A stretch of 64,000 nucleotides of DNA from an uncultured Acidobacteriota bacterium (GCA_963761615.1 CAVXGU010000003.1:2657336-2721335); one strand, 5' to 3'. Shown: positions 2,746 through 62,798, counted from the first letter of the stretch. Translations and numbers: made by a program. The notes: generated from the sequence alone by a model not told the origin.

Positions 2746-3618
2746 CTACGGCATGTACTTCCCGATGATTGGCTGCAGCGCCTTCTTCGTCGCCTCGGGG
2801 ACCGCTTCCGGCCGCGTGATGATGGCCTGCGCCAGCGCGTCCTTGCAGGGGCACGTGCGCGGTCCCGAGAGGCGTCCCACGGCTTCGGCAATCGCCTTCT
2901 GGGCCGTCGAGGCGTTCTGCAGCAGGTTCGCCACGATCAGGTCGACGGTCACCGCGTCGTGATCGGGATGCCAGCAGTCGTAGTCGGTCACGAGCGCCAG
3001 CGTCGCGTAGCAGATCTCGGCCTCGCGGGCGAGCTTGGCTTCCTGCAGGTTCGTCATCCCGATGACGTCCATGCCCCACGAGCGATACAGCCGCGACTCG
3101 GCGAGGGTCGAGAACTGGGGCCCCTCCATGTTCACGTAGGTCCCGCCGCGGTGCACGGTCGCGCCGACGGCCTCGACCGCATCCGCCGCGATGTCCGACA
3201 GCACGGCGCAGACCGGGTGCGCGAACGCGATGTGCGCCACCAGGCCGCGGCCGAAGAAGGTGCTCACGCGCCCCTTGGTGCGATCGAAGAACTGGTCGGG
3301 CACGACGATGTCGAGCGGCTTGAGATCCTCCTTGAGGCTGCCGACCGCGCTCGCCGACAGGATCCGCTCGACGCCGAGCGTCTTGAAGCCGTAGATGTTG
3401 GCGCGGAAGTTGAGCTCCGACGGCGAGATGCGGTGGCCCTTGCCGTGGCGCGCCAGAAAGGCGACGCGCTTGCCGCGCAGGGTCCCCGTCAGGTAGGGGC
3501 CCGACGGATCGCCGAACGGCGTCGTGACGGTCTCCTCCTTGCGATCCGTCAGCTCCGCCATGTCGTACAGCCCGCTTCCTCCGATGATTCCGATCTCGAT
3601 GTTCACGGCGGTCCTCAT
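2746..3618 (-). CDS. mtnP: S-methyl-5'-thioadenosine phosphorylase
   Basis: 290 aa with [30 protein letters not shown] and [30 protein letters not shown], typical of the MTAP/PNP family. Confidence 0.9.
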
Positions 3619-3670: not shown

Positions 3671-4945
3671 CTATTTGGCCGGCTCGGCCTCCACCCGAGG
3701 CGTCCCGCCGTCGTCCACGATCCGCCCGGCGGCGACGTCGGGATCGTGATCGAAGAGCACGAGCAGCCGGCGGTCGATGGCCTCGCGCACGAACGCCTTC
3801 TTGGCGGCCAGCGTCTCGACGGGATACAGGTCGTAGCCCATGATCCACGCCGCCGCCAGGTGCGCACGCGTCGGCGCGAGATCCGCCATGTAGACCGCGC
3901 GAACGCCCTGCGACTCGATCATCACCATCTGGTGATCGCGCGTGTGCCCCCCGGTGCGGCGGACCCGCACGCCCGGCATGATCATGGCGTCGTCATCGAC
4001 CAGCTGGAGCACGCCCGCCTCGGCGAGCGGCGCGAAGTTGTCGGCGCGGTAGCTCGCCTGGTTCCGCTCGTGCGGGTGTGTCGCGTCCTCCCACTCGCCC
4101 CGCCGCACGATGTACTGGGCCCGCGGGAACCTCGGCCGCAGGCGTCCGGAGGCATCCCGCCGCGTGAAGCCGCCCGAGTGGTCGAAGTGCAGGTGGGTGG
4201 CGAGCACGATGTCGATGTCCTCCGGCGCGAGGCCCGCCTCCTCGAGCGCGTGGTCGAGGTGGCGCGCGCGGTCCACGGCGTAGATGTCCTGGAACTTCGC
4301 CGTCTCCTTGTCGCCCAGGCCCGCGTCGACGATCATCGTCCTCGCCCCGCGGATGACGAGCGGGCGCATCGCCAGACGAATCCGGTTGCGGGCGTCTGGC
4401 GGCGCCGGCTTCTCCCAGAACGTCTTCGGGATCACGCCGAACATCGCCCCGCCGTCGAGGCCGAAGAAGCCGTCGTACAGCGAGAGGAGCTCGAGGTCGC
4501 CCACGGCGTAGCGGCTGACCCGCAGGGGCTCGCGGACCGGCGCGGCCCTCGGCTGCTTCAGCTCGACCAGGACGCCGTTGGCACTGGCCGGATGGATGAA
4601 CGCGACGAGCGCGCCCTCGGCGCCCTGGCGCGGCTCGTCGTCCACCAGCCGGAGCCCGCGCGCGCGAACTGCGGCGAGTGCGGCCCGGATGTCCTCGACC
4701 CGCAAGGTGACGTGGTGCAGCCCCGGCCCACGCCTCGCAACGAACCTCGCGATCGGCGAGTCGGGCGTCGTCGCCTCGAGCAGTTCCAGGCTCGACCGTC
4801 CGACGGGGACGAAGTGGGCGCGCACGCCCTGGGACGCCACTTCCTCGGGCGGCTCGACGTCCAGCCCGAGCGCGTCGCGAAAGAAGGCCAGGGATGCGGC
4901 GAGGTCGGACACCGCGATGCCGATGTGATCGAGAGTCGCCTTCAC
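3671..4945 (-). CDS. fusion protein: methylmalonyl-CoA epimerase-like VOC domain plus MBL-fold metallo-hydrolase domain
   Basis: Single 424-aa ORF with a GTG start. The N-terminal roughly 130 aa (LDHIGIAVSDL...GPGLHHVTLRVEDI...GVLVELKQ) are VOC/epimerase-like. The C-terminal part carries LATHLHFDHSGG (the HxHxDH metallo-beta-lactamase motif). Confidence 0.8.
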   Translation of the reverse strand: MKATLDHIGIAVSDLAASLAFFRDALGLDVEPPEEVASQGVRAHFVPVGRSSLELLEATTPDSPIARFVARRGPGLHHVTLRVEDIRAALAAVRARGLRLVDDEPRQGAEGALVAFIHPASANGVLVELKQPRAAPVREPLRVSRYAVGDLELLSLYDGFFGLDGGAMFGVIPKTFWEKPAPPDARNRIRLAMRPLVIRGARTMIVDAGLGDKETAKFQDIYAVDRARHLDHALEEAGLAPEDIDIVLATHLHFDHSGGFTRRDASGRLRPRFPRAQYIVRRGEWEDATHPHERNQASYRADNFAPLAEAGVLQLVDDDAMIMPGVRVRRTGGHTRDHQMVMIESQGVRAVYMADLAPTRAHLAAAWIMGYDLYPVETLAAKKAFVREAIDRRLLVLFDHDPDVAAGRIVDDGGTPRVEAEPAK

Positions 4946-5061: not shown

Positions 5062-6003
5062 TCAGCGGGGGCACGCGCGGCCCAGGAGGTCGTCGGCCGC
5101 CGTGTAGGGATCGATCTCGCGCGCGGCCACGCGCTCGACGATCGCGTCGAGCTCGCCGGGGCGGAGAACGCTCGTCGTCAGGTGCTCCATGAACCGCCGC
5201 GACACGAGGTCCTGCAGACGGTGCTCCGCGCGCACGCGCCGCCGCGTGTGGTCGAGCTCCGCGTGGCGGTCGCGGAACGCCTCGATCGCCGCGACGAGGT
5301 CGGCCACTCCGGCGCCGGTCGTCGCGACCGTCTTCACGATCGGCGGCCGCCACGCCGATGCCCCGAACGCGACGAGCGCCAGATTGGCTTCGACGGCGGT
5401 CACCAGCGCGTCGGCGCCGTCGCGGTCGGCCTTGTTGACGACGAAGACGTCGGCGATCTCCATGATCCCGGCCTTGAGCGCCTGCACCTCGTCCCCCGTG
5501 CCCGGCACGAGCGTGACGACGGACACGTCGGCGGTCCGGACGATCTCGATCTCGTCCTGACCCACGCCCACCGTCTCGATGAGGATCGTCCGGGCGCCCC
5601 ACGCGTCCAGTACGAGGGCCGCGTCCGCCGTGGTGCGCGCGAGGCCGCCCAGGTGTCCTCGCGTGGCCATGCTGCGGATGAACACGCCCTCGTCCTGCGT
5701 ATGGGTCTGCATCCGCAGGCGGTCGCCCAGGATCGCGCCACCCGAGAACGGGCTGGAGGGATCGACCGCGAGCACGCCCACCTTGCCGCGCCGGCGGAAC
5801 TCGACGGCCAGGCGATCGACGAGCGTGCTCTTGCCCGCGCCGGGCGGACCGGTGATCCCGACGAGGTACGCCGTGCCGGTGTCGGCGAAGATGCGCCGCA
5901 GGAGCGCCACCGCCCCGGGGCCCTCGTCCTCGACAATCGAGAGGGCGCGCGCCACGGCCCTCACGTCGCCCGCGCGCACGCGGTCCGCCAGCGCCGCCGT
6001 CAC
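5062..6003 (-). CDS. meaB: methylmalonyl-CoA mutase-associated GTPase MeaB/ArgK
   Basis: A GTG at 6003 overlaps the upstream stop (GTGA). It has [13 protein letters not shown] (P-loop), [12 protein letters not shown] and [10 protein letters not shown], which are the G3E GTPase motifs. Confidence 0.9.
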
Positions 6004-7151
6004 GCGAGCAGCTGCCTGGCGATCACCAGACGCTGGATCTCGCTGGTGCCTTCGCCGATCGTGGTGAGCTTGACGTCGCGGAAGAACTTCTCCGCGGGAT
6101 AGTCCTTCACGAAGCCGTAGCCGCCGTGGATCTGGACGCAGTCGTCCGCCGCCCGGACCGCGATCTCGCTCGCATAGAGCTTCGCCATCGCCGACTCGCG
6201 CGTCGTCTTGACGCCGCGGTCCTTCATGTCGGCGGCCCGGTAGGTCAGGAGGCGCGCCGCCTCGATGCGGGTCGCATGGTCGGCCAACTTCCACTGGATC
6301 GCCTGAAAGCGGCTGATGCTCTGGCCGAAGGCGTGGCGATCGATCGCGTAGCGTCGGGCCGCCTCGAAGGCGCCCTGCGCGAGGCCGACCGACAGGGCCG
6401 CGATGCCGATGCGCCCCGCGTCGAGCACCCGCATCGCCTGCGAGAATCCCTGCCCCGCCTCGCCGATCAGCTGGCTGGACGGGATCCGGCAGTCCTCGAA
6501 GAGCACCTCGCTCGTGTCGCTGGCGCGCATGCCGAGCTTGTCTTCCTTCTTGCCGGCGGTGAAGCCCGGCGTGCCGCGCTCGACCACGAAGGCCGAGATG
6601 CCTCGCGAGCCGGCCGCGGGATCGGTGACGGCCATCACGACGAGCACGTGGCCGGCGCGGCCATGCGTGGTGAACGTCTTGGCGCCGTTCAGGAGCCATC
6701 CATCCCCGTCGCGCACGGCGGTCGTACGCATGCCGGCCGCGTCGCTGCCCGAGGTCGACTCGGTGAGCGCCCAGGCACCCACCTTCTCGCCTCGCGCGAG
6801 CGGCACGACGTGGGCGCGGCGCTGATCGTCGGAACCGAACGCCAGCAGGTGGGCGGTGCAAAGACCGTTGTGGGCGGCGACCGACAGCGCGACAGCAGGA
6901 TCGACCCGCGCCAGCTCTTCGATGCAGAGGCAGTAGTCGACGGCGGACATCCCGGCGCCACCCCAGGTCTCGGGCACCTGGATGCCCATCAGCCCGAGGG
7001 CGCCGAGCTTCGGCACGAGCTCGGACGGGAAATGCTGGGCGGCGTCCCACTCGCGGACGTGCGGCCCAATCTCGGCCTCGGCGAACTCGCGGACGCTCTG
7101 CCGGAGCAGGTCCTGTTCCGGCGTGAGGCGGAAGTCCATGTTCCGCTTCAC
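6000..7151 (-). CDS. acyl-CoA dehydrogenase
   Basis: 383 aa with [26 protein letters not shown] and QIHGGYGF...[25 protein letters not shown], typical of the short/branched-chain ACAD family. Confidence 0.9.
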
Positions 7152-7199
7152 TTTACCACTAGTGGTGCAGCCGGACGGGATGCGCCGCCCGCCGCGGGG

Positions 7200-7826
7200 C
7201 TAGCAGTACACCGTTACGCGGAAGCTGCCCCGGTTCTCCGGCCAGCGGTCGTCGTTGATCCCGAGATAGAGCCGGCCCGTCGCGCGGATCCGAATCGGTC
7301 CCTGGTCATCGCCGATGAAGAACGGATCGCTGCCGGCCCCGACCCGCCCGATGAGGGACCCGGCCGGGCGTGTCGGGATGGGACGCGCGGGGTTGTCGGG
7401 CGAGTTCTTCTCGCCGGCGGGACCGTCGTTGCGCCCGTCGCGCCAGCGCACCTTGCCGGTCGCCGTGAAGTAGACGACCTGCCCGGCGCGCACGTCGAGA
7501 CTGCTGTCGTTCCACGGCCGACGGCTGTCGACGTCCACGACGCGCTCGCGCAGGCCGCGCGGCCGCGCCGCCGGGGCGTCGCGGGCGTCGCGATCGTCGC
7601 GCGCGCCGTCGAGATCGATCGACCGCACCGCGTCGCGATCGACGTGAATCCGGTCCCGTCCGCCGAAGGGCCCGTTGCGCACGACCTCGAACTCGACATC
7701 GTCGTCGCGCACGGCAATCAGGCGGCCGTCGAGCCGGCGGCCGTCGCGCAGATAGAGGGTGTCCGCCGAGAGTACCCCCGTGCACAGCAGAGCGAGCACG
7801 GTGCCGGTCAACAGTCGAGCCTTCAT
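7200..7826 (-). CDS. exported hypothetical protein (C-terminal lectin-like beta-sandwich suspected)
   Basis: The signal peptide is MKARLLTGTVLALLCTGVLSA. An Asp/Arg-rich linker follows. The C-terminal VYFTATGKVRW...GRLYLGINDDRWPENRGSFRVTVYC resembles PA-IL/LecA-like domains; this is my recollection only. Confidence 0.55.
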   Translation of the reverse strand: MKARLLTGTVLALLCTGVLSADTLYLRDGRRLDGRLIAVRDDDVEFEVVRNGPFGGRDRIHVDRDAVRSIDLDGARDDRDARDAPAARPRGLRERVVDVDSRRPWNDSSLDVRAGQVVYFTATGKVRWRDGRNDGPAGEKNSPDNPARPIPTRPAGSLIGRVGAGSDPFFIGDDQGPIRIRATGRLYLGINDDRWPENRGSFRVTVYC

Positions 7827-10223: not shown

Positions 10224-11072
10224 CTAGGACCCCGCCCTGCCTCCCGGCCACTTCAGGTCGGCCTTCCCGTCGCGCATTTCGGCCTTGGCCTGGCGCGTCG
10301 TCCGGCCCGGCAGCGTCTTGTCGCGGGGCTTCAGCTTCCAGAGGCGCCACAGGTCTTCGTCGGTCGCGTTGGCCGGCTTGTCGGTGTCGCGGAAATCGGC
10401 GGCGTCGACCTCGACAATGGCGCACATCTCGTGCAGGCGGGACCGCATGCGGAAGCCGATGCGGCCCAGGAGCGAATTCGGATCCGTCTGATCCGGGACG
10501 TCCGAGTAGTTCGACGTGAAGAGCGTGAGTCGCCGCTGGTTGTACCGCGTGTTCACGATCAGGTTCATCGTCTCTTCGACCCAGTCGGTCGGCCGCTCGG
10601 CGCCAAGGTCGTCGAGGACGAGGAGCTCCGCCTCCATCACGGGCCGGATCACGCTCACCTCGCTGGTCCGGACGACGGGGTCGTAGGTGCTGCGGATCGT
10701 CCGCAGCAGGTCCCGGGTGTCGCAGAAGAGGCCGGTGGCGCCGGTGCGGGCGATCGCCTCGCGGAGGATGCCCACCGCGATGTGCGTCTTCCCGACACCG
10801 GCCGGGCCGAGGAGCAGGAGCCCTCGCTCGGACGAAGGAAACGCGTCGAGAAACCGGCGGCCGGCGGCGACGGCCGCGACGAGCGACGGATTGTAGACCT
10901 GGAAATTGTCGAGCGTGCAGTGCCGGTAGCGGGCCGGGATCGACGCGCCCGCCAGGTGCTCCGACGCGACGCGCGCGCGCCAGCAGTCGCAGCGCGCCAC
11001 CCGGCGCGGGCCGGAGCCGGATGGATCGTCGACCGGCTTCCAGCCGGTGTCATCGCAGTACGGGCATGCCAT
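10224..11072 (-). CDS. DnaC/DnaI/IstB-like AAA+ ATPase with N-terminal zinc-ribbon
   Basis: The start is MACPYCDDTGW...CDCW (Cys4 cluster). It has a Walker A motif LLLLGPAGVGKTHIA and a Walker B motif LLVLDDLG. The ATG at 11072 is preferred to the TTG at 11102. Confidence 0.75.
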   Translation of the reverse strand: MACPYCDDTGWKPVDDPSGSGPRRVARCDCWRARVASEHLAGASIPARYRHCTLDNFQVYNPSLVAAVAAGRRFLDAFPSSERGLLLLGPAGVGKTHIAVGILREAIARTGATGLFCDTRDLLRTIRSTYDPVVRTSEVSVIRPVMEAELLVLDDLGAERPTDWVEETMNLIVNTRYNQRRLTLFTSNYSDVPDQTDPNSLLGRIGFRMRSRLHEMCAIVEVDAADFRDTDKPANATDEDLWRLWKLKPRDKTLPGRTTRQAKAEMRDGKADLKWPGGRAGS

Positions 11073-11171
11073 GTTCAGTGGAGGTGCACGAAGAGAATAC
11101 AACGAACGACGAGGCGGCGGAACGGCGGCACGCAGGAATCGGGGCGCGCAGACAACGACCGAGAGGCCGCG

Positions 11172-26448: not shown

Positions 26449-27039
26449 ATGGTCAGCGCGGCGATCCTCGCCGGGGGCTCGGCCCGCCGGTTCGGCGGAC
26501 GCGAGAAGGGCCGGCTGCTCGTCGACGGCCGGCCCCTCGTCGAGTGGCAGCTGGCGGCCCTGGCGCCGCTGACCGACGATGTGCTGGTGATCGGACGGCC
26601 GGGCGCGGCGGAGCCGCCGTCCGGCGCGCGAGCGGTCGTCGATCGCGTCGCCGACCGCGGTCCGCTGGGCGGCCTCTACACCGCGCTGCTCGAAGCCGCC
26701 GGCGACCCGGTGCTGATCCTGGCCTGCGACATGCCGTTCGTCACCACGGCGCTGCTCGGCCGACTGCTCGAGCTCGCTCGAAACGCCGACGCCGCCGTGC
26801 CGCGCACCGATCGCGGGTATCATCCCCTGTGCGCCGCCTACGCACGCAGCGCGCTGCCGCCGATCGCGCGGCGACTGGCAGACGGCCGATTGAAGATGAT
26901 GGACCTGCTCGACGACCTCCGGGTACGCCCCCTCGACGCCGAGGCGCTCGCGCTGCTCGGGAGCCCTCGCCTCCTCGCCAACATCAACACGCCGGCGGAG
27001 TATCGCGAGGTCGAGTCGCTCCAAGTTCACGAACCGTAA
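26449..27039 (+). CDS. mobA: molybdenum cofactor guanylyltransferase
   Basis: AAILAGGSARRFGG.EKG and LILACDMPFVT are MobA signatures. Confidence 0.85.
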   Translation: MVSAAILAGGSARRFGGREKGRLLVDGRPLVEWQLAALAPLTDDVLVIGRPGAAEPPSGARAVVDRVADRGPLGGLYTALLEAAGDPVLILACDMPFVTTALLGRLLELARNADAAVPRTDRGYHPLCAAYARSALPPIARRLADGRLKMMDLLDDLRVRPLDAEALALLGSPRLLANINTPAEYREVESLQVHEP

Positions 27040-27098
27040 TCGTAGCACGAGCTTACCGGCATCGAAGGGCGTCCGCCGCGGGCGCCGGACGCGCACTC

Positions 27099-29096
27099 AT
27101 GATTCTCACCGTTCAACGTTCCGTTCACGATCAGATCGCCGCCGTCGCCCGGCGCCTCTACGGTCTGGCCGAGGTACCGGCGTTCGCCGTGGAAGTCCCG
27201 CCCAACCGCGCGCTCGGCGATCTGGGCGTCACCCTCGCCTTCCAGCTGGCGCGGACGCTCCGCAAGGCGCCGCGCGCCATCGCGCAGGAAGTCGCGGCGG
27301 CGGCCGGCGCGCTCGAGGGCGTCTCGCGCGTCGAGGCCGCGCCCAACGGCTACCTGAACCTGTTCCTCGACCGCCGCGCCTTCGCCCTGGCCCGCCTGCG
27401 TGGGGAAGTCCCTCTCCCGGCGCTGGACGCGGACGCCGCCGGCAAGACGGTCGTCGAGCACACGGCCATCAATCCGAACAAGGCGGCGCACGTCGGCCAT
27501 CTGCGCAATGCGACCCTGGGCGACACGCTCGTCCGCGTCCTGCGGTTTCGCGGCACACCCGTCGAAGTCCAGAACTACATCGACGACACCGGCGTCCAGG
27601 TGGCCGACGTCATCGTCGGGTTCAGCCAGCTGGAGCGCCAGTCGCTCGACGCGGTCCGCCGGATCGCGGACCAGACGCGCTTCGACTATTACTGCTGGGA
27701 CCTGTACTCCCGCGTGACGGACTGGTACGACGGCGACCAGGCGCGGCTCGCGATTCGCGCCGACACCCTCCACGCGCTCGAGCACGGCGGCAACGACACC
27801 GCCGCGCTCGGAACCTTCATCGTCGATCGCATCGTGCGGGCGCACTTGCGCACGATGGCGCGGCTGAACATCGGCTACGACCTGCTGACGTACGAGGGCG
27901 ACATCCTGCGCCTGCACTTCTGGGCCCGCGCCTTCGAGATTCTGAAGGCCCAGGGCGCGGTGTTCCTCCAGACCGAGGGCCGGCTGGCCGGCTGCTGGGT
28001 GATGCGGATCGACGAGCCCGGCGGCCAGGACGCCGCCGCCGACGACGAGTCCGCGGCCGAGGAGTCGCGCGAAAAGGTGATCGTCCGCTCGAACGGCGTC
28101 GTGACGTACGTCGGCAAGGACATCGCGAACCAGTTCTGGAAGTTCGGGTTGCTCGGGCGCGACTTCCACTACCTCCGATTCGAGGAGCCGGCACACGCCG
28201 GCACACTCTGGGCCACGACCTCGGGTCCCGGCGAGACGCCGGCACCGGACTTCGGCCGGGCGGCGCGCATCTTCAACGTCATCGACTCGCGCCAGATGTA
28301 CCTGCAGGCGCTGCTCGTCCAGGCGCTCCGCGCCCTCGGTCACGCCCGGGAGGCCGAGCGCTCGATCCACTTCTCCTACGAGATGGTGGCGCTGTCGCAC
28401 GCCACGGCGCGCGAGCTCGGACACGGGCCCGACGAGGGCGCCGACGCCCGGAAGCCGTTCGTGGAGGTCTCGGGCCGCAAGGGCCTGGGGGTGAAGATCG
28501 ACGACCTGCTGGATCTCCTCACCGCCAAGGCGGCCTCGGAGGTCGAGACCCGCAACCCCGATCTGGCGGAAACCGAACGCCGGCGGGTCGCCGCCCAGAT
28601 CGCGGTGGGCGCCATCCGCTACTTCATGCTGAAATACTCGCGGGGCAAGATCATCGTGTTCGACATCGAGGAAGCGCTCGCATTCGAGGGCGAAACCGGT
28701 CCATATCTGCAGTATGCTGTCGTACGGGCGAACAACATCTTCGCCAAGCTGCGCGAACGGGAAGGCACGACCGAAGCCGACGTCCTGGCGGCCGTGGCCG
28801 ACGCCCCCACGGGCGAGCTGGACGGCGGCGATGGGACGCTCTGGACGCTGATGTTCGAGGCCGCACGGCTCGACGAAGTGGTCGAGCAGGTCGTGCGGAC
28901 GCTCGAGTTCTCCGTGCTCGCCAAGTACGCGTTCGGGCTGGCGCAGATGTTCAATGCCTTCTATCACCGGTCGTCGATCCTCAACGAGGAACAGGCGGAC
29001 CGGAAACTCTGGCGCGCCGCCGGCGCGGCCTACGCCAGGGCGCAGCTCGCCCGCGCACTCGACCTGATGGGCATCGAGGTGCCGTCGCGCATGTAG
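27099..29096 (+). CDS. argS: arginine--tRNA ligase
   Basis: The internal ATG at 27099 starts MILTVQRSVHDQIA. It has VEHTAINPNKAAHVGHLRN (HIGH region) and a C-terminal DALR anticodon-binding region ending ...MGIEVPSRM. The upstream 427 codons of the ORF are noise. Confidence 0.9.
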   Translation: MILTVQRSVHDQIAAVARRLYGLAEVPAFAVEVPPNRALGDLGVTLAFQLARTLRKAPRAIAQEVAAAAGALEGVSRVEAAPNGYLNLFLDRRAFALARLRGEVPLPALDADAAGKTVVEHTAINPNKAAHVGHLRNATLGDTLVRVLRFRGTPVEVQNYIDDTGVQVADVIVGFSQLERQSLDAVRRIADQTRFDYYCWDLYSRVTDWYDGDQARLAIRADTLHALEHGGNDTAALGTFIVDRIVRAHLRTMARLNIGYDLLTYEGDILRLHFWARAFEILKAQGAVFLQTEGRLAGCWVMRIDEPGGQDAAADDESAAEESREKVIVRSNGVVTYVGKDIANQFWKFGLLGRDFHYLRFEEPAHAGTLWATTSGPGETPAPDFGRAARIFNVIDSRQMYLQALLVQALRALGHAREAERSIHFSYEMVALSHATARELGHGPDEGADARKPFVEVSGRKGLGVKIDDLLDLLTAKAASEVETRNPDLAETERRRVAAQIAVGAIRYFMLKYSRGKIIVFDIEEALAFEGETGPYLQYAVVRANNIFAKLREREGTTEADVLAAVADAPTGELDGGDGTLWTLMFEAARLDEVVEQVVRTLEFSVLAKYAFGLAQMFNAFYHRSSILNEEQADRKLWRAAGAAYARAQLARALDLMGIEVPSRM

Positions 29097-29125
29097 CGCG
29101 GGCCGCACCCCTTCACGGACATCCT

Positions 29126-41380: not shown

Positions 41381-43105
41381 TCACTCGGTGACGCGGAAGG
41401 AGACGAGATCCTTGGCCTGGCCGTTCGGCGCGCTCACGGCAATCTCGATCGAGTACGGTCCGTGCGCCAGGTTCGCGAGCGACACGTCGGTCTCGAACCA
41501 GTTCGGAGCATTCGGCATCGCCCGCACCTGGAGCCGGCGCAGGGCGTTGCCGTCGGGCCCCTGCAGCACCGCCGTGCGCTGCAGCGTTCCGTCGGCATAG
41601 GCCGCGAAGCGGACCAGGAGGCGCTCCGCGCGGCTGAACTCGCGAGACGCCACCGGCGCCGCCGTCGGATCCGATTCGAGGAGCCGCCAGTCGCGCGCCG
41701 TGCGGGCACGGAAGACTTCCGGCGAGCCCAGCACCACCGCGCCGTCCATCTTGCGAATGCCGAGCGACCGGGTGTCGTGATCGAGCTCCTGCCCGCCGTT
41801 CTCCACCGACATCTGCAGGCGCAGGCGGCCGGGCGGCACGTCGAAAACCGCGCGCGCCGGCGGCGCCGTCTCCTCCTCACCCGCTGCGCCGCTCGGCGGC
41901 ACCACGGCGTGGAAAACGGACGTCCCGTCGGGTTCGAGCGCGTCGAGCACGACCTGTGACGGCTCCGGTTGACGCGATCGACTGCCCGGGACCCTCGGCA
42001 CCGGCTCCCACACGAAGGTCACGCGCGTCTTCCCGTCGTCGCCGCGCGTGAAGCCGAACCACGGACGGATCAACTGGCTCGCGTGCGTCATCTCGATGGC
42101 GGGCACGGCCGGCGGCGGCACCGCCGCCGCCGCGATGAGGCGAGCGGCCGCCTCCGAGGGCGCCCAGTAGCCCGGACGCGCGCGCACCGACACGTTCGGC
42201 TGCGACGCAGTCACCGTGACCGCATGGAAGCGGCCGTCGCCATCGTCCGCCGACGGCAGCTGCAGCCAGTAGTACGCGCCGGCATCCGCGACCATTCGCC
42301 GCAGGCCGGGGTCGAGATCCGGCCCCGCGATCATCCGCCCGCCGGTGTCGTCGGCGAGCGTCGACAGCGACGAAGAGGCCTCCGACGCCGACTCCGGATC
42401 GACGGCATACACCGCGACGTTGCCGCCGTTGGCGAGCCGCGCGACCGTGTCGGGTCCGGCGCCCGCGGCTTCGCCCCGCCGCCGCCCGGCGACCGGGGTG
42501 ATCCCGTCGCTCACGACCACCAGGGTCTTGCGGCCGGCGCCGGCGCCCGCGAGGTACCGCGCCAGCGCGGCCGCCGCGGACCACGACATCTGGGCGCGGG
42601 TCGCGTCGGCGGCTGCCGGCGATCGCGCGACGAGCTGCTGTTCGAACGGCGTGCGGGGCGTGTAGTCGCCCAGGCGGCCGGCAAAGGAGCCGATCGCCCG
42701 CGCGAGCGCCTCGCGGTTGTCGGTGAGCGTGATCGAGACGAGCGAATCGAGGGGCTTCAGCACGACGGCCCGATCGCCGGCGCGCATGTCCTGCTCCACG
42801 AAGCGCGTCAGCGCGTCGCGCACGCGCGGCACGTCGGAGGAGGCGACGTGGTACTCGTCGAGAAAGATGCCGTAGACGCGGGGACCCCGGTCCGCCGCCG
42901 GTTCCACGCCGCCCACCGTCACCGGCACTCCGTCGACCCGCACGCTCACGCCGGACGAGTCGAGGCGCGGGAGGCTCCGCCCGCTTCGGTCCGTCACGAG
43001 CACGTCGATCCCGACGCCGCTCTCCGCCGCGCGCAGCCGCACCGGAACCACCCACGTCCCGAACAGGACGAGGAGCGCAAGGACCTTCCTCACATTCCCC
43101 CTCAC
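41381..43105 (-). CDS. VWFA-related acidobacterial domain protein (exported)
   Basis: GTG start. It has a signal peptide, VGIDVLVTDRSGRSLPRLDSSGVSVRVDGVPV and a VWA-like core (YGIFLDEYH...TLVVVSDG). It is a paralogue of the next gene. Confidence 0.8.
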   Translation of the reverse strand: MRGNVRKVLALLVLFGTWVVPVRLRAAESGVGIDVLVTDRSGRSLPRLDSSGVSVRVDGVPVTVGGVEPAADRGPRVYGIFLDEYHVASSDVPRVRDALTRFVEQDMRAGDRAVVLKPLDSLVSITLTDNREALARAIGSFAGRLGDYTPRTPFEQQLVARSPAAADATRAQMSWSAAAALARYLAGAGAGRKTLVVVSDGITPVAGRRRGEAAGAGPDTVARLANGGNVAVYAVDPESASEASSSLSTLADDTGGRMIAGPDLDPGLRRMVADAGAYYWLQLPSADDGDGRFHAVTVTASQPNVSVRARPGYWAPSEAAARLIAAAAVPPPAVPAIEMTHASQLIRPWFGFTRGDDGKTRVTFVWEPVPRVPGSRSRQPEPSQVVLDALEPDGTSVFHAVVPPSGAAGEEETAPPARAVFDVPPGRLRLQMSVENGGQELDHDTRSLGIRKMDGAVVLGSPEVFRARTARDWRLLESDPTAAPVASREFSRAERLLVRFAAYADGTLQRTAVLQGPDGNALRRLQVRAMPNAPNWFETDVSLANLAHGPYSIEIAVSAPNGQAKDLVSFRVTE

Positions 43106-43110
43106 GTCGT

Positions 43111-43136
43111 CAGTTCCTCGGTTCCTCAGTTCGTGA
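43111..43136 (-). repeat. tandem 8-9-nt GAGGAACN repeats preceding the downstream VWFA start
   Basis: The reverse strand reads CACGAACT GAGGAACC GAGGAACT GACGAC GTG. The repeats overlap the stop codon of the upstream VWFA gene. Confidence 0.6.
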
Positions 43137-45219
43137 CGCGGAAGCCCACGAATTCCGACACCGGCTTGGTCCCGCCAGCCGATGCGGACACTTCCATCAC
43201 GTAGTCACCCGGCGCGAGGCTCGCCAGGGGCACTTCGATCTGCGATGGCGCGTCCGGTGCAGGGCCGGGTTCGACCTTGAGGTCTTCCATCGGCTCGCCG
43301 TCCCGGTTGAGCAGGCGCGCCGTGAGCGCTGGCGAAGCCTCGGCGTACACCGGCACCCGCACCAGCAGCGACTCCGTCCGGCTGAACGCCCGCGCCACTG
43401 CCGGCACCGCCTGCGGGTCGTCTTTGATCTTCTGCAGTTCCAGGAACGTCCGGGCACGGAAGACGGCGGGCGTGCCGAAGACCGTGTCGGGCGCCGTCAG
43501 ATCCGGCACGGTCACGTCGCGGACCTCGGTGTCCAGCACGGACTGATCCGGGCTGTCGACCTCGAGACGCATGTGCATCGTGCCGGGCGGCACGTCGAAG
43601 CTGACGCGCGAGCCCGCCGGCGCGGGGGTGCCCGCCTTCGGGAGTTGCTCGGGCACCCGTCCCCGGTAGTAGGGGGTGCCGTCGTCGCCGACGGCCATGA
43701 TCGAGACCTGCGCCGGCGCGTCATCCGCATCGGGCGTCCGGCCGGGCACACCCGGCCGGGGCGTCGGCTGCCAGACGAAGGTCACCTTCGTCTTGCCGTC
43801 GGCGCCACGGGACGTGCCCAGCCAGGACTCGATGAGGTGCGCCCGGACCGGGACGTCGACCGCGGCGAGCGCCTGCGTGACGCCGGGCGGAGGCCCGGGC
43901 CTGGCGGGCGCCTTGAGGCGCGCGGCGTTCCCCGGCGTGATCGCCCAGTAGCCCCGCCGCGCCCGCACCTGGACGTCCGGCCGTTTCACGCGAACGGAGA
44001 TCTGGTGGAACTTGCCGTCGGTGGGCGCGTTCGACGAGTCGTACCCGATGAGGTAATAGGCGCTCTCGTCGCTCACGATCTGCTTGAGGCCCGGCGCGAT
44101 GTCGTTGCGGTTCACGATCGCGCGGCCTTCGGTCTGCTCCGAGAGCGACCGCAGCGTGTCCTGCGTCTGCTGCAGGTACTGGCCGCCGATCTGGCTGCTG
44201 ATGTTGTCCGCAATGTCGAAATCCGAGCCGGCCAGCCCGCGCGGGTCGATCGCGTAGATCGCGACGTTGTTCCGGTTCGCCGTGTCGTAGATGTCGCGGA
44301 GGTCGTCGTCCAGCTGCGATCCGGCCAGAAACCCGGCCAGCTGCTCGTTCGGATCGTTCACGCCCAGCAGGGGACTCGAGTGGCTCTCGATGCCGGGCAC
44401 CTGCGCGTTGTCGCTGCGCATCTGCGGCGGGACCATGTAGGTGTAGCCCTCGCTGACCAGCAGCAGGGCCTTGCGCGCTTCCTTGAGACCGCCCAGGTGG
44501 ATGATGAAGGCCTTGAGCGCAGAGAGGGCCACCTGCACCCGGATCCGCTCGACGGTTTCCGTCGGGTAGTCGGCGTACTTCTCCTCGAACGCGTTCTTCG
44601 GCTCGTAGTCGTACTTCCGGCCGGTGAACTGCTCGAGTGCCTTCTCGATGGCCGCATGGTCGCGGGTCATCCGGACCGAGTCCAGGGACTCGAGCGGATA
44701 CATGATCCCGACCATATCCGACGGCCCGAGCTGCTTCTGGACGAACTGGGCGAGCTCGTCGCGCACCCGCATGCTCGACTCCCGCCGGACGTGATAGTCG
44801 TCCAGGAAGATGCCGAAGAGCCGCACGTCGTCTCGCGCGGCCTCGGCCTGCTCGTCCTCGTCGGTGCGGATCGGGCGCGGGGGCTCGCCCGACGGCTCCG
44901 ACGCGCCGCCGTCGAGGTGAATCAGCTTGAAGGTCTGGATGGTCTGCGGCTTGCCGTCCTCCAGGACCTGGAAGTCGTTCTGGGTGAGGTTGGTGATCGG
45001 CGCGCCGTTGTGCGACGAGACGATCACGTCGACCCGGACGAAGTTGATGCCCGCGCGGAAGACCGGCTGCTGCGCGTTCGGCCCGGCGGAAGGCGCCTGC
45101 TGGTCGGCCGGCGCGGGCGGGCCCGGCGGCGGCGCGGGCTGCTGCGCGTCGCCGCGCGCGCCGAGCGCCACCACCGCGAGGGCTACCGCGCCGATCGTGC
45201 CGCGGAGCTTCCAAGCCAC
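43126..45219 (-). CDS. VWFA-related acidobacterial domain protein (exported)
   Basis: It has a signal peptide, FRAGINFVRVDVIVSSHNGAPITNLTQNDFQVLEDGKPQTIQTF, FGIFLDDYH and LLLVSEG. The C-terminus ends ...FRVTN, compared with ...FRVTE in the paralogue. Confidence 0.85.
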   Translation of the reverse strand: MAWKLRGTIGAVALAVVALGARGDAQQPAPPPGPPAPADQQAPSAGPNAQQPVFRAGINFVRVDVIVSSHNGAPITNLTQNDFQVLEDGKPQTIQTFKLIHLDGGASEPSGEPPRPIRTDEDEQAEAARDDVRLFGIFLDDYHVRRESSMRVRDELAQFVQKQLGPSDMVGIMYPLESLDSVRMTRDHAAIEKALEQFTGRKYDYEPKNAFEEKYADYPTETVERIRVQVALSALKAFIIHLGGLKEARKALLLVSEGYTYMVPPQMRSDNAQVPGIESHSSPLLGVNDPNEQLAGFLAGSQLDDDLRDIYDTANRNNVAIYAIDPRGLAGSDFDIADNISSQIGGQYLQQTQDTLRSLSEQTEGRAIVNRNDIAPGLKQIVSDESAYYLIGYDSSNAPTDGKFHQISVRVKRPDVQVRARRGYWAITPGNAARLKAPARPGPPPGVTQALAAVDVPVRAHLIESWLGTSRGADGKTKVTFVWQPTPRPGVPGRTPDADDAPAQVSIMAVGDDGTPYYRGRVPEQLPKAGTPAPAGSRVSFDVPPGTMHMRLEVDSPDQSVLDTEVRDVTVPDLTAPDTVFGTPAVFRARTFLELQKIKDDPQAVPAVARAFSRTESLLVRVPVYAEASPALTARLLNRDGEPMEDLKVEPGPAPDAPSQIEVPLASLAPGDYVMEVSASAGGTKPVSEFVGFRVTN

Positions 45220-58246: not shown

Positions 58247-58807
58247 CTACACGTCCTCGCGCTCGTCGTGCTCCAGCAGGTCGAGCCCCGTCCCGGAGAA
58301 CTGGATGGCGTGCGTCGAGATCTTGTCGCGCAGGACGCGCCGGGCGGCGCCGTACTTGTCGCCGGGCACGACCAGCCGGCGCGCCAGGTGGCGCAGGCGC
58401 GAGATCACGATCAGCGTGGCCTGGTGCTCGCCCTCACGCCACGTCACGCCGCCGACTTCCTCGTAGGGAATGAACGCCTGGTCCGCCCAGATGCCGTCCT
58501 CGTAGAAGCCCCGGCCGATCCGCCGGCCGAGCGGCATCACGTAGGCGTAGTAGAGGAACATCATCGTCTCGCCGAAGACCTGCTCGTGGAGGAAGGCGAG
58601 CTTGTAGAAGGCGAGCAGGCCGAGGGCGATCCCGATGGCCGTCTGCAGGGCGAAGTACGGCGGACGGGGGCCCGGCCAGGTGAGCACCGCGTGCGTGCGC
58701 CGGCGGCGATATCGCTGATACTCGAGCAACAGCCGCGCGTTGACGACGAGGAAGCCCAGACCCAGCAGGAGAAGCGTCGTGGTGATGACGGGCTCCAGCT
58801 CGGACAC
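58247..58807 (-). CDS. membrane protein with cytoplasmic PH-like domain (hypothetical)
   Basis: It has three TM helices followed by GFYEDGIWADQAFIPYEEVGGVTWREGEHQATLIVISR. It lies between efp and ku with 33-nt gaps on each side. Confidence 0.6.
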   Translation of the reverse strand: MSELEPVITTTLLLLGLGFLVVNARLLLEYQRYRRRRTHAVLTWPGPRPPYFALQTAIGIALGLLAFYKLAFLHEQVFGETMMFLYYAYVMPLGRRIGRGFYEDGIWADQAFIPYEEVGGVTWREGEHQATLIVISRLRHLARRLVVPGDKYGAARRVLRDKISTHAIQFSGTGLDLLEHDEREDV

Positions 58808-59498: not shown

Positions 59499-60737
59499 AT
59501 GCGAATTCGCAAGGCCCTCTTCGTCATCGTCATCGCCTTCGTCAGCTTCATGGCGGGTCTCATCGTCACCGGGCGTGTGCGCCTGGCGTCGATGCCGTCC
59601 GCCGGCCCGCCGGCCCCGGCCGAGGCGGCCGCCGCGCCCGCCACGGCCGCACCCGTCGTCGCGGAGACATCCACCGACGCCGCCCCCGCCGCGGAGCCCG
59701 CGACCGCCGTCGGCGGCGGACCCGACTTCACGCACATCGCGGCGCAGGCCGTGCGCGGCGTCGTCAACATCTCGTCGCTCCAGGTCGTCCGCACACAGAA
59801 CACGCCGTTCTCGAACGACCCGTTCTTCAACTACTTCTTCGGCGGCGATCAGTTCTTCGGCGGACGCGACCAGCGCTCGCTGAGCCTCGGCTCCGGCGTC
59901 CTCATCTCGCCCGACGGCTACATCGTCACCAACAACCACGTGGTCGGCGAGAACGAGCAGAAGATCACGGTGACGCTGGGCGACAAGCGGGAGATGGAGG
60001 GCCTCGTCGTCGGCACGGATCCGGCCACGGACATCGCGCTCCTGAAGATCGAGATGAACGGTCTGCCGGTGATCCCCTGGGGCGACTCGAACCAGCTCAA
60101 GATCGGGGAGTGGGTGCTCGCGATCGGGAGCCCCTTCCAGCTGAGCCAGACGGTGACCGCGGGCATCGTGAGCGCCGTCGGACGCAGCAACGTCGGCCTG
60201 GCCAACTACGAGGACTTCATCCAGACCGACGCGGCAATCAACCCCGGCAACTCGGGCGGCGCGCTGATCAACCCGGCCGGCCAGCTGGTCGGCATCAACA
60301 CGGGCATCTTCAGCGAGAGCGGCGGCTATCAGGGCATCGGCTTCGCCGTGCCGAGCAACCTGGCGCGCAAAGTGGTCGACGATCTGCGGCAGTACGGGGA
60401 GGTCCACCGCGGCGCGATCGCGGGCATCGCCTCGATCGACAAACTCACGCCGCAGTGGGCGAGCGAGCTGAACGCCCCGGACACCAGCGGCGCGCTGATC
60501 GTGCGGATGATGCGCAACTCGGACGCCTACAACGCCGGGCTGCGCCCGGGCGACGTGATCGTCGGCTTCAACGGCACCGCGATCGACGACCCGTCACAGT
60601 TCTACCGGTTGATGGCGGACGCGAAGATCGGATCCACGGCGAGGCTGCGCGTCCTGCGCCAGGGACGCCCGCTGGAGGTCACCGTGACGATCGTCTCGAG
60701 CAGCCGGTCGATGTCGACGACGTCGGCGGGGCGCTAG
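59499..60737 (+). CDS. HtrA/DegP-family serine protease with one PDZ domain
   Basis: It has a signal anchor, the catalytic motifs TNNHVV, DIALLK and GNSGGAL, and a PDZ region (GLRPGDVIVGFNG). Confidence 0.9.
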   Translation: MRIRKALFVIVIAFVSFMAGLIVTGRVRLASMPSAGPPAPAEAAAAPATAAPVVAETSTDAAPAAEPATAVGGGPDFTHIAAQAVRGVVNISSLQVVRTQNTPFSNDPFFNYFFGGDQFFGGRDQRSLSLGSGVLISPDGYIVTNNHVVGENEQKITVTLGDKREMEGLVVGTDPATDIALLKIEMNGLPVIPWGDSNQLKIGEWVLAIGSPFQLSQTVTAGIVSAVGRSNVGLANYEDFIQTDAAINPGNSGGALINPAGQLVGINTGIFSESGGYQGIGFAVPSNLARKVVDDLRQYGEVHRGAIAGIASIDKLTPQWASELNAPDTSGALIVRMMRNSDAYNAGLRPGDVIVGFNGTAIDDPSQFYRLMADAKIGSTARLRVLRQGRPLEVTVTIVSSSRSMSTTSAGR

Positions 60738-61975
60738 GCGAGGGCCTGCGCCTTCCGCGACTCCCACCAGGACTCGAATTCCTTGAACGCCCGCCCCAGG
60801 TGGACCGGCGGCGTCACGCGGCCGGTCACGGCCTCCGTCGTCTTGTAGCCGTTCCCCGTCACGCAGACGACGACCGACTCGTCGCGCGGAATCACGCCGC
60901 GCTCGATCAGATCGATCGTGCCGGCGAGCGTCGTCCCACCCGCGGGCTCCGTGAAGATGCCCTCGGTCTCGGCCAGGATCTGAATCGCGTCGACGATCTT
61001 CTCGTCCGGCACGGCCACGCCCGTCCCGCCCGTGGACCGGACGCCCGCCACGGCCTGGTAGCCGTCGGCGGGGTTGCCGATCGCGATCGACTTGGCGATC
61101 GTGTCGGGCCTGACCGGCTCGGGATAGTCCTCGCCCGCGAGGAGCGCGTTGACGACCGGCGCGCAGCCGGCGGCCTGGGCGGCGTGCACCCGCGGCAACT
61201 CGCCATCGACGAGCCCGATCTCGCGCAGCTCGCGGAAGCCCTTGAGGATGCGCGGCAGCAGCGTCCCGCCGGCCACCGGCGAGACGACGTGCTGCGGAAA
61301 CCGCCAGCCGAGCTGCTCGACGATCTCGAAGCCCATCGTCTTGGCCCCTTCGGCGTAGTACGAACGCAGGTTGATGTTGGCGAAGCCCCAGCCGTAGCGG
61401 TCCGCCACCTGCGAGCACAGGCGGTTGACGTCGTCGTAGTTGCCGGAGATGGCCAGGATCGTGGGACGGTAAATCGCCGACCCGAGGAGCTTGCCGGCCT
61501 CGAGGTTGTCGGGGATGAAGACGCAGCAGTCGAGTCCGAGGCGCGCGGCGTGAGCCGACACGCTGTTGGCCAGGTTGCCGGTCGACGCGCACGCGAGCAC
61601 CTCGAACCCGAGCTCGACCGCGCGCGTCGCCGCCACCGACACGACGCGGTCCTTGTAGGACAGCGTCGGATGGTTCACGGAGTCGTCCTTGATGTACAGC
61701 TCTTGGACGCCGAGGCGCGCGGCGAGGCGGGTCGCGCGCACGAGCGGCGTGAAGCCCGAGTGGAAGCCGGTGCGGGGCTCACCGGCGATCGGCAGGAGTT
61801 CCCGGTACCGCCAGAGATTCTCGGGCCGTGCTGCGATGATTTCGCGGGTCAGGTGAATCGCCGAGAAGTCGTAGACCGGCTCGAGCGGACCGAGGCACTT
61901 GTCGCAGACGTACAGCGCCTCCGGCGGGAACCGGGCCTTGCACAGATGACATTCGAGTCCGATGAGCGCGCTCAA
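60734..61975 (-). CDS. threonine synthase family (ThrC-like) PLP enzyme with N-terminal zinc ribbon, SAM-riboswitch controlled
   Basis: A TTG at 61975 with a GGGAGG SD 4 nt upstream is preferred to the GTG at 62026, which lies inside the aptamer. It has ECHLCK...VCDKC (zinc ribbon), HPTLSYKDR (PLP lysine) and ASTGN. Confidence 0.85.
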   Translation of the reverse strand: MSALIGLECHLCKARFPPEALYVCDKCLGPLEPVYDFSAIHLTREIIAARPENLWRYRELLPIAGEPRTGFHSGFTPLVRATRLAARLGVQELYIKDDSVNHPTLSYKDRVVSVAATRAVELGFEVLACASTGNLANSVSAHAARLGLDCCVFIPDNLEAGKLLGSAIYRPTILAISGNYDDVNRLCSQVADRYGWGFANINLRSYYAEGAKTMGFEIVEQLGWRFPQHVVSPVAGGTLLPRILKGFRELREIGLVDGELPRVHAAQAAGCAPVVNALLAGEDYPEPVRPDTIAKSIAIGNPADGYQAVAGVRSTGGTGVAVPDEKIVDAIQILAETEGIFTEPAGGTTLAGTIDLIERGVIPRDESVVVCVTGNGYKTTEAVTGRVTPPVHLGRAFKEFESWWESRKAQALA

Positions 61976-61982
61976 GACGCCT

Positions 61983-62105
61983 CCCTCATCTCTCCTCCGC
62001 TTCAGCGCGAGGGCAGGAATTGGCACCTAACCGCGCTCGAGGATGGGGCTCGCGTGGTTGCCGTGGCGTCGTCGGGCCTGTTCCCTCAGCCACTCTGGAT
62101 AAGAG
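61983..62105 (-). promoter_or_regulatory. SAM-I (S-box) riboswitch aptamer
   Basis: The reverse strand reads CTCTTATCCAGAGTGGCTGAGGGAACAGGCCCGACGACGCCACGGCAACC...GGTGCCAATTCCTGC...GAGAGATGAGGG. This matches the SAM-I core (CUUAUCaAGAG.GG.GAGGGA..GGCCCGA.GA..CC.GGCAACC...GGUGCcAAUUCCUGC...AGAUGAG). Confidence 0.88.
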
Positions 62106-62124
62106 CTATGCAGTTGTCCGCACG

Positions 62125-62153
62125 ACTATATCAAAGCGCCGCCGCCGTCACAA
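62125..62153 (-). promoter_or_regulatory. putative promoter of the riboswitch-ThrC-like transcript
   Basis: The reverse strand reads TTGTGA (62153..62148), a 17-nt spacer, then TATAGT (62130..62125). It lies about 20 nt upstream of P1. Confidence 0.5.
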
Positions 62154-62167
62154 CGCCTCGTATCGAC

Positions 62168-62187
62168 ATATCCACCTGCGTGGATAT
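62168..62187 (-). terminator. 8-bp perfect hairpin abutting the mpg stop codon
   Basis: The sequence is atatccac ctgc gtggatat. There is no U-tract. It could equally be a protein-binding palindrome upstream of the riboswitch promoter. Confidence 0.35.
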
Positions 62188-62798
62188 CATCTGGGCCTGG
62201 AGACGCAGGGATTCCCCGCCACGTACGCGCGCCACGGGTGCTCGGTGCCGACGCGAATCCCGATCCGCGGGCCCCAGGCGATCGACGCCGGCGCGGCGCG
62301 CCGACCCTCGACGAACAGACGGGGGCCCCGCAGATCCAGCCGGTTCTCGGCGAGCGTGATGCCCAGCGCCCTGGTCACGTTGCCCGGGCCGCGACAGAGA
62401 TTGACGTCCTCGATCGGACCGACCGACGCCCGCCTGCCTCGCGCCGGCCGCCTCCGGCGGCGCCGCATGAGGTCCAGGCCCTCGACCGGCTCGAGCGCGC
62501 GGATGAGGACCGCGGCCGGCGAGCCCTCGGGCTCCGTCACGACGTTCACGAGGTAGTGAATCCCGTAATTGAGGTAGACGTACGCCCGACCCGGCGGTCC
62601 GTACAGCGGCGCGTTCCGCGGCGTGGGACCGGGAGCGGCGTGACACGCGGGGTCGCCCTCGCCGATGTACGCCTCCACCTCGACGATCCGCCCGCTGCAC
62701 CGCAGGCATCGGCGCTCGTGAACGAGAAGGGCGCCGAGCAGGTCGGCGGCGACCTCCAGGGTCGGCCGGGCGTAGAAGGCGCGCGGGAGCCGGCTCAT
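62187..62798 (-). CDS. mpg: DNA-3-methyladenine glycosylase (AAG/Mpg family)
   Basis: It has FYARPTLEVAADLLG..L, GRIVEVEAY and GRAYVYLNYGIHYLVNVV. Confidence 0.9.
   Translation of the reverse strand: MSRLPRAFYARPTLEVAADLLGALLVHERRCLRCSGRIVEVEAYIGEGDPACHAAPGPTPRNAPLYGPPGRAYVYLNYGIHYLVNVVTEPEGSPAAVLIRALEPVEGLDLMRRRRRRPARGRRASVGPIEDVNLCRGPGNVTRALGITLAENRLDLRGPRLFVEGRRAAPASIAWGPRIGIRVGTEHPWRAYVAGNPCVSRPR

Follow-up and report, generated by a model that had tools for sequence, protein, structure and literature searches.

The stretch of DNA analysed here (the window, 64,000 nucleotides (nt) from an uncultured Acidobacteriota bacterium, GCA_963761615.1 CAVXGU010000003.1:2657336-2721335) carries on its reverse strand a gene of the threonine synthase (ThrC) family, with an S-adenosylmethionine (SAM) riboswitch of the SAM-I class in its leader. 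We propose, with a probability of about 0.7, that the region is a self-contained, SAM-repressed unit of the methionine branch, in which a SAM-I translational OFF switch acts on a homocysteine synthase of the MetM type. From gene context and phylogeny we take the gene itself to be, most probably, a homocysteine synthase of the MetM type that is subject to SAM feedback. In the proposed mechanism the gene's own promoter (62153-62125) would drive a leader of about 140 nt holding the SAM-I aptamer (62105-61983). At high SAM the aptamer would be bound and its P1 helix locked, with the Shine-Dalgarno region GAGGGAGG mostly covered by the P1 3' strand GAUGAGGG. With P1 locked and the TTG start codon 7 nt downstream the ribosome would be unable to load, and translation would be off. 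At low SAM P1 would open and the MetM-like enzyme would be made. The enzyme is predicted to replace the phosphate of O-phosphohomoserine with sulfur, giving homocysteine, the precursor of methionine and SAM, and all three would be replenished.

A SAM-I riboswitch in the leader of the gene

The whole 64-kb window was searched with cmscan against Rfam 15 (4,227 families), using the gathering scores as cut-off. The only match above gathering was to RF00162, the SAM-I (S-box) family, at 76.5 bits against a threshold of 44.4 (E = 3.4e-16). The match spans model positions 1-108 of 108 without truncation, and the core blocks are all present in the Rfam alignment. The original prediction had called a SAM-I element at 62105..61983, with five core blocks in a given order and a P1 of 6 Watson-Crick and 2 G-U pairs, and had named a score against the gathering threshold as the check. 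The Rfam scan returned exactly the same coordinates, the five quoted blocks were all found in the order claimed, and the pairing of CUCUUAUC with GAUGAGGG is seen both in the sequence and in the Rfam alignment. A covariance model built in this analysis (R1) scores the window aptamer at 90.8 bits. When the aptamer is folded alone, the four-way junction of P1-P4 is the minimum-free-energy structure, at -42.4 kcal/mol. The aptamer lies between the promoter and the TTG codon at 61975, on the same strand as the gene. Judged by its sequence, the window element is a genuine, high-confidence SAM-I riboswitch, ordinary of its kind, and is predicted to bind SAM.

The same arrangement recurs in relatives. 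In the two loci L001 (87% identity) and L002 (83%) a SAM-I element stands ahead of the gene, scoring 86 and 94 bits respectively. To these we added a locus scan over one genome per GTDB species, queried with a 7-sequence alignment, and from at least 600 matches we retained the best 80. The 80 loci span 51-82% identity and come from Acidobacteriota, Planctomycetota, Cyanobacteria, Nitrospirota, Verrucomicrobiota, Chloroflexota, delta-proteobacterial lineages, Actinomycetota and others, with Streptomyces not among them. SAM-I was found upstream in 20 of the 80. Taken together, Rfam and our own covariance model gave 24 SAM-I elements in 85 sources, one in the window and 23 in other loci. All 24 are directly upstream of the homologous gene or its operon, on the same strand, and none was found elsewhere in the approximately 0.97 Mb of those sources. 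The riboswitch was not found in the Cyanobacteria (39 loci), the Nitrospirota and some other groups.

Covariation across the 24 elements is consistent with a conserved fold. In an alignment fitted to the covariance model, which favours pairing, 97.6% of cells were paired, against 41-50% in controls with slid partners. Compensatory changes on both sides were present in 13 of 26 base pairs, and none of 500 shuffles reached this result.

Gene context and phylogeny point to the MetM family

The encoded protein matches the Pfam family PALP at 221.7 bits. Its four zinc-ribbon cysteines, C9, C12, C24 and C27, are invariant or nearly so in alignments A1-A3, as are K108, D109 and R110 of the lysine motif. 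From knowledge of the family, K108 is presumed to form the Schiff base with pyridoxal 5'-phosphate (PLP). The nearest solved structures are threonine synthases (PDB 6cgq, 2d1f, 2zsj and 1uim; E ~1e-54), which align with the window protein only from residue ~50-55 onwards; the PDB sequence search returned no MetM structure. More than 100 homologous proteins are 81-97% identical to the window protein, and those with names are all called "threonine synthase" and belong to the Vicinamibacterales, which makes the window host an acidobacterium of the same order.

A precedent for a different function exists. The passages on Streptomyces albulus in PMC12172450 and bioRxiv 10.1101/2024.10.14.618325 describe MetM as a ThrC homologue, "often misannotated" as threonine synthase, that makes homocysteine from O-phosphohomoserine, drawing on the MetO thiocarboxylate and assisted by Mec and MoeZ; the source cited there is Hasebe et al. 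2024 (Appl Environ Microbiol 90:e01247-24). The MetM/MetO system of Streptomyces that the original prediction had named is borne out by both texts. The corresponding part of PMC12172450 also places a SAM riboswitch upstream of S. albulus metM and gives 51.6% identity to S. albulus MetM for a homologue from Microcystis.

The neighbourhoods of the family loci resemble this system. In 66 of the 80 loci the gene is followed directly, on its own strand, by a ThiS-family open reading frame (ORF) of about 90 residues that ends in ...PA(I/V)AGG, with a median gap of 114 nt, and riboswitch and metO occur together in 15. The hidden Markov model (HMM) that we used for MetO was built from one of these ThiS-family neighbours. 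In L035 the order is SAM-I, the metM-like gene, a ThiS-NIL fusion, two PLP cysteine-synthase-like ORFs (judged by sequence only), a JAB protein (Mec-like) and a ThiF protein (MoeZ-like), and in L019 it is SAM-I, ThiF, the metM-like gene and ThiS.

The neighbour-joining tree places the window protein and ten Vicinamibacteria relatives in one clade, nested inside the MetO-linked family. The sister of this clade is L013, which has both MetO and SAM-I, plus L016, and the canonical ThrC paralogues stand well apart. Identities to the window protein are 51-59% for MetO-linked homologues and 30-37% for the canonical ThrC paralogues of family loci, with 55% for the Microcystis homologue L077, whose carrier gene adjoins. 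Residues at three places separate the groups as well. The MetM-like family, including the window protein, carries STGN-LA in place of the STGN-TS of canonical ThrC, and N202 in place of its serine. The ThrC segment N-S-x-N-P-x-R appears in the MetM-like family as N-x-N-L-R-x-Y-Y.

Five loci (L010, L011, L038, L049 and L063) hold a canonical ThrC paralogue as well as the MetM-like gene. The order in L010 (4786-11153) and L011 (5006-11137) is thrB, the MetM-like paralogue, a canonical-type thrC2 and thrA, with no riboswitch; the canonical-type ThrC there has 451 residues and a zinc ribbon of its own, and thrA encodes a bifunctional aspartokinase/homoserine dehydrogenase. The C-terminal half of the L010 thrB ORF looks frameshifted. 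In L038, L049 and L063 the order is the MetM-like gene, metO and thrC.

Database models say little about the choice between the two functions. TIGR00260 (thrC) is passed not only by the window protein but also by the MetO-linked proteins of L077, L035 and L013, and so does not separate them. NF006050 (PRK08197), with a cut-off of 303 bits, gives 315 to L035 (6001-7254) and 304 to L013 (504-1778) against 197-212 for canonical ThrC; the window protein scores 285, below the cut-off. This model probably describes the MetM family and is probably misnamed "threonine synthase". Because TIGR00260 fits both groups and NF006050 fits the MetO-linked proteins best, the database name carries no weight here.

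The suggestion in the original prediction that the gene is MetM-like therefore gains support from four sides: the nesting in the tree, the 66 ThiS-linked loci, the JAB and ThiF genes of L035 and the canonical ThrC paralogues that share loci with family members. Given the riboswitch and the conserved ThiS/JAB/ThiF neighbourhoods, the family would belong to methionine biosynthesis and not to threonine biosynthesis.

A further domain accompanies the carrier in several lineages. NIL domains (PF09383) are fused to the MetO-like carrier or follow right after it in delta-proteobacterial, Binataceae and Planctomycetota loci: L035 7275-7790 (the fusion) and L017 7744-7998, both confirmed by Pfam, and L014 3500-3772, L015 9720-9977 and L019 8602-8859, recognised by similar sequence. 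NIL appears as a conserved, unexplained partner of the MetM/MetO pair.

The expression platform

A consensus scan gave 2 promoter-like sites against 0.1 expected in shuffles, and a sigma-70-type promoter stands ahead of the aptamer. Its -10 box, G(A/G/T)TATAGTC, is invariant in the window, L001, L002, L006 and L007. Transcription would start near 62118, about 13 nt ahead of P1.

At the other end of the aptamer, 5 of the 8 bases of GAGGGAGG lie inside the P1 3' strand. GGAGG ends 4 nt, and GAGG 8 nt, ahead of the start codon. We take TTG 61975 as the real start because L001 and L002 have GTG at the homologous position and share the N-terminus MSALIGL(E/Q)CHLC with the window protein. A longer ORF beginning at GTG 62026 was rejected; its start would fall inside the aptamer. 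No intrinsic terminator was found in 60500-62400, and classic transcriptional attenuation was therefore rejected for the window. The lack of a terminator and the 7-nt spacing from P1 to the start argue for control at the level of translation.

Relatives use one of two designs. In L035, L013, L015-L017, L019-L021, L065, L080 and others, a G+C-rich hairpin and then a U-tract come after the aptamer. The hairpin's 5' arm complements the P1 3' strand, as in classic S-box OFF switches. The window, L001, L006 and L007 lack a terminator, and their start codons follow P1 by 7-9 nt; in L007 the predicted P1 extends across Shine-Dalgarno bases. One aptamer-gene pair would thus have two platforms, a terminator in low-GC lineages and a Shine-Dalgarno in P1 in a high-GC lineage, and offers a clean natural example of both.

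We infer the OFF direction from the geometry of P1 and the Shine-Dalgarno and from the terminator-type relatives of the same riboswitch-gene pair, which are classic OFF switches. The overlap of P1 with the Shine-Dalgarno that had been described for the window is real and is kept in the closest relatives L001, L006 and L007, and the same geometry, together with the OFF-type relatives, speaks for the translational OFF switch that had been suggested. The coordinates of all features are collected in Table 1.

Table 1. Features of the riboswitch-gene unit in the window
Feature	Position	Strand	Basis
SAM-I (S-box) riboswitch aptamer, P1-P4 four-way junction	61983..62105	-	RF00162 match, folding, covariation
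P1 5' strand CUCUUAUC	62098..62105	-	Rfam alignment
P1 3' strand GAUGAGGG, overlapping the Shine-Dalgarno	61983..61990	-	Rfam alignment and sequence
Sigma-70-type promoter: TTGTGA, 17-nt spacer, TG-extended TATAGT	62125..62153	-	Consensus scan
Putative Shine-Dalgarno region GAGGGAGG	61980..61987	-	Sequence
TTG start codon	61973..61975	-	GTG at the homologous position in L001, L002
ThrC-family fold-type II PLP enzyme, 413 aa; candidate MetM-type homocysteine synthase	60734..61975	-	Pfam, NCBIfam, identity, tree
N-terminal zinc ribbon: CxxC, 11 residues, CxxC (C9, C12, C24, C27)	61895..61951	-	Alignments
K108 codon, motif S-Y-K-D-R	61652..61654	-	Alignments; matches the SFKDR lysine in solved ThrC structures

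Two further observations concern these leaders. In an otherwise 70% G+C genome, an AT-rich element lies just upstream of the -35 box (window ~62160-62195, - strand) and contains an inverted repeat, ATATCCAC-gcag-GTGGATAT, followed by GATATGTCGATA. A related AT-rich sequence is present in all five Vicinamibacteria promoters, that of the window and those in L001 (9790-9830), L002 (9645-9685), L006 (~3960-4000) and L007 (~5740-5780). In the window a promoter-like match on the + strand (62163-62190) falls inside the element. The element may be bound by a transcription factor, in addition to the control by the riboswitch.

In four Tepidisphaeraceae/Phycisphaerales loci, near-perfect hairpins of ~30-70 bp (-54 to -97 kcal/mol) lie between the riboswitch terminator and the start codon: L015 5905-6000, L017 5905-6000, L014 632-804 and L020 5888-6000. 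They are made up of short tandem repeats, and their sequence differs from locus to locus.

Gene neighbourhood in the window and its clade

Across the 64-kb window the MetO HMM found nothing (best E = 5.2). Pfam scans of about 58 window ORFs returned housekeeping genes only, and no ThiS, JAB, real ThiF, hom, thrB or other met gene. The sole ThiF match, at E 5.5e-4, is below the Pfam cut-off and lies inside a glutamate dehydrogenase. The earlier remark that no MetO/ThiS-like ORF adjoins the gene is in line with these scans, and it extends to the whole Vicinamibacteria clade.

Other members of the clade carry sulfur or homoserine genes at this place. In L001, L002, L006 and L007, genes for siroheme synthase and sulfite reductase stand directly upstream of SAM-I, which is followed by the gene; in L006 hom stands between the riboswitch and the MetM-like gene. 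In L008 and L010-L012, thrB and/or hom lie beside the gene and there is no riboswitch, with cysG downstream in L012. The window is syntenic with L001, both showing uvrA, mpg, the gene, and then a convergent HtrA-like protease, efp, Ku and uvrC. The block between mpg and the riboswitch in L001 (6369-9878) and L002 (1537-9730), consisting of the siroheme-synthase (NAD_binding_7 + TP_methylase) and sulfite-reductase (NIR_SIR) genes, is missing at the corresponding place in the window (62106-62186). As the rest of the region is syntenic, the lack of cysG/sir in the window marks an indel or a rearrangement. In L065, outside this clade, a small protein with NIR_SIR and a 4Fe-4S ferredoxin domain (6228-7208) follows the riboswitch-controlled MetM-like gene, at the place usually taken by metO.

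Alternative explanations

Several observations weigh against reading the gene as a MetM-type homocysteine synthase under a SAM OFF switch, and they concern the enzyme, its leader and its sulfur donor. For the enzyme, the window protein passes TIGR00260 with 267.5 bits against a cut-off of 167.1, and its likeness to S. albulus MetM is drawn from gene context, published statements and the Microcystis identity rather than from a direct sequence comparison. In PMC12172450 the Microcystis homologue is reported to be weakly active as a threonine synthase and as a threonine deaminase, with no clear function as MetM in vivo. The gene could encode a true threonine synthase, controlled by SAM to balance the O-phosphohomoserine branch point. 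The TIGR00260 score and the threonine synthases among the nearest solved structures would fit such an enzyme, as would the riboswitch-free homologues beside thrB, hom or thrA in L008 and L010-L012. In a search with the canonical paralogue of L010, the best 120 listed matches were all soil-metagenome proteins at least 78% identical to it, none of them from the contig of the window genome or from L001. We nevertheless consider a true threonine synthase unlikely. TIGR00260 does not discriminate, the identities favour the MetO-linked proteins, L010 and L011 have, within one operon, a separate ThrC paralogue beside the homologue, and both genes occur in L038, L049 and L063. Linkage to ThiS, JAB, ThiF and sulfite reductase has no role in threonine synthesis. 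In plants SAM activates threonine synthase, and a SAM-OFF switch would run opposite to that logic. For the leader, the minimum-free-energy fold of its full length pairs GGGAGGCGUCUUGAGCGCGCUC with GAGCGCGGUUAGGUGCCAAUUCCU. The pairing joins 62037-62014 to 61986-61962 and involves the Shine-Dalgarno and start region and, in the aptamer 3' half, the conserved GGUGCCAAUUCCU part. This fold lies 5.8-9.8 kcal/mol below the P1-enforced fold, varying with the coding sequence included, so the ON state is not obviously open. The pairing could serve a SAM-ON switch, in which the ligand-free leader sequesters the ribosome-binding region and folding of the aptamer with SAM frees it, and L001 is predicted to have an analogous, though not identical, sequestration. 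Such a switch seems to us highly improbable. Binding of SAM cannot free the site, since 5 of the 8 Shine-Dalgarno bases are themselves covered by P1. The window pairing is out of register in L001, and L006 and L007 lack it, their minimum-free-energy structure already being the aptamer with P1; shuffled sequence folds as well as the full leader does (z = 0.22). For these two reasons, its lack of conservation and its z value, we gave the fold little weight. The SAM-ON reading was rejected on comparative grounds, as this pairing is not conserved and the terminator-type relatives are all classic OFF switches. The Shine-Dalgarno in P1 is also not universal, even in the Vicinamibacteria clade, since L002 has a 162-nt spacer.

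The sulfur donor also bears on the MetM-type reading. A ThiS-like ORF was found in none of the 11 loci of the Vicinamibacteria clade (including the window, L001, L002 and L006-L012), where the flanks covered came to 64 kb for the window and, for the other loci, to 6-10 kb either side or less if the contig was short. An adjacent metO, one of the features that define the published MetM system, is therefore absent locally. The sulfur could come from free sulfide or from a MetO-like thiocarboxylate whose gene lies elsewhere in the genome. It is possible, if doubtful, that this lineage has no need of MetO and that the enzyme is a direct O-phosphohomoserine sulfhydrylase using free sulfide from sulfite reductase, under the same riboswitch logic. 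Consistent with this are the contrast between 0 of 11 clade loci and 66 of 80 family loci, the siroheme-synthase and sulfite-reductase genes upstream in L001, L002, L006 and L007, cysG in L012 and the swap in L065. Three substitutions, E189Q, K242R and Y307Q, are also specific to the clade at otherwise nearly invariant positions. However, a missing neighbour is not the same as absence from the genome; none of the best 120 matches listed in a search with the L013 MetO lies on the contigs of the window genome, L001 or L010, and that list is not exhaustive. The substitutions F107Y, S211A, S238T, T344P and L377Y are shared with MetO-linked sister clades, other loci lacking MetO (L045, L062, L065 and L022) show no convergent changes, and no sulfite reductase lies near the gene in the window. 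The residue evidence for a changed sulfur donor is weak, because most candidates are shared with MetO-linked sisters and there is no convergence. We therefore offer only tentatively the picture of an "orphan" MetM in the Vicinamibacteria, controlled by the riboswitch, independent of a carrier, using sulfide and possibly the sole route to homocysteine in an abundant soil order. Whichever donor the MetM-type enzyme uses, a clade without an adjacent carrier gene poses a concrete sulfur-donor question.

Comparison with known systems

The closest parallel is MetM/MetO of S. albulus. Both are ThrC-homologous PLP enzymes called threonine synthase with a SAM riboswitch upstream, in a family that mostly has a ThiS-type carrier and that adds JAB (Mec-like) and ThiF (MoeZ-like) proteins in some clusters. 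They differ in that the window clade has no adjacent metO and shows siroheme-synthase/sulfite-reductase genes or thrB/hom beside the gene. The window host is moreover an acidobacterium and not an actinomycete, and the window protein is known from sequence alone. The arrangement as such has already been published for Streptomyces and is widespread here, and nothing in it is categorically new. Novelty is lower than the original prediction assumed, because the link between a SAM riboswitch and metM was already on record for S. albulus. What our survey adds is breadth, the unit of SAM-I and metM(-metO) reported in Streptomyces being found in at least 8 other phylum-level lineages. The "threonine synthase" labels affect pathway reconstruction and the prediction of auxotrophy in Acidobacteriota, Planctomycetota, Cyanobacteria, Nitrospirota and other phyla.

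Textbook cases of SAM-I are the yitJ and metI leaders of Bacillus subtilis and the metF aptamer of Thermoanaerobacter tengcongensis. The window element shares with the S-box family (RF00162) a full-length match, the core blocks, the four-way junction and a place in the 5' leader of what we take to be a methionine-branch gene. The textbook cases use a terminator and antiterminator, whereas the window has no terminator and carries its Shine-Dalgarno in the P1 3' strand, which suggests translational control. In this respect it resembles SAM-II, SAM-III (the SMK box), SAM-V and preQ1 riboswitches, in which the Shine-Dalgarno is buried in the ligand-bound aptamer. There, as proposed here, Shine-Dalgarno pairing stabilised by the ligand blocks loading of the 30S subunit without a separate expression platform. 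The folds are unrelated, being pseudoknots or the SMK fold, whereas the sequestering helix of the window is P1 of a canonical SAM-I.

Canonical ThrC (TIGR00260) and the window protein have in common the PALP fold, the S-x-K-D-R lysine motif and O-phosphohomoserine as presumed substrate. The solved ThrC structures, however, have no N-terminal zinc ribbon, and canonical ThrC carries the STGN-TS and N-S-x-N-P-x-R motifs and falls in a separate clade of the tree. A related logic is found in Mycobacterium tuberculosis, where CysM makes cysteine from O-phosphoserine with CysO, a ThiS/MoaD-like thiocarboxylate carrier, the JAMM protease Mec+ and a ThiF-type activator. That system likewise has a PLP enzyme of fold type II act on an O-phospho amino acid, with a carrier thiocarboxylate donating the sulfur. 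It differs in its product, cysteine, in the CysK/CysM subfamily of its PLP enzyme and in having no riboswitch control.

Other features of the window

Four ORFs on the - strand have no Pfam match: 41381-43105 (574 aa), 43126-45219 (697 aa), 27027-29108 (693 aa) and 58247-58807 (186 aa). In three of these (41381-43105, 43126-45219 and 58247-58807) the G+C content at third codon positions (GC3) exceeds 0.9, a gene-like codon bias. The 186-aa ORF is kept beside Ku in L001, where it also has no Pfam match. A PNP_UDP_1 phosphorylase (2746-3618, - strand) overlaps a PfkB-family kinase ORF (1749-2891), with no riboswitch; the pair may serve nucleoside or methylthioadenosine salvage. An IstB-like/AAA ATPase ORF (10224-11102, - strand; PF01695, E = 2.7e-12) is flanked by a HemN-type radical-SAM gene and by a MerR regulator that stands upstream of dnaJ-dnaK; it is possibly a helicase loader of the DnaC kind or a remnant of IS21.

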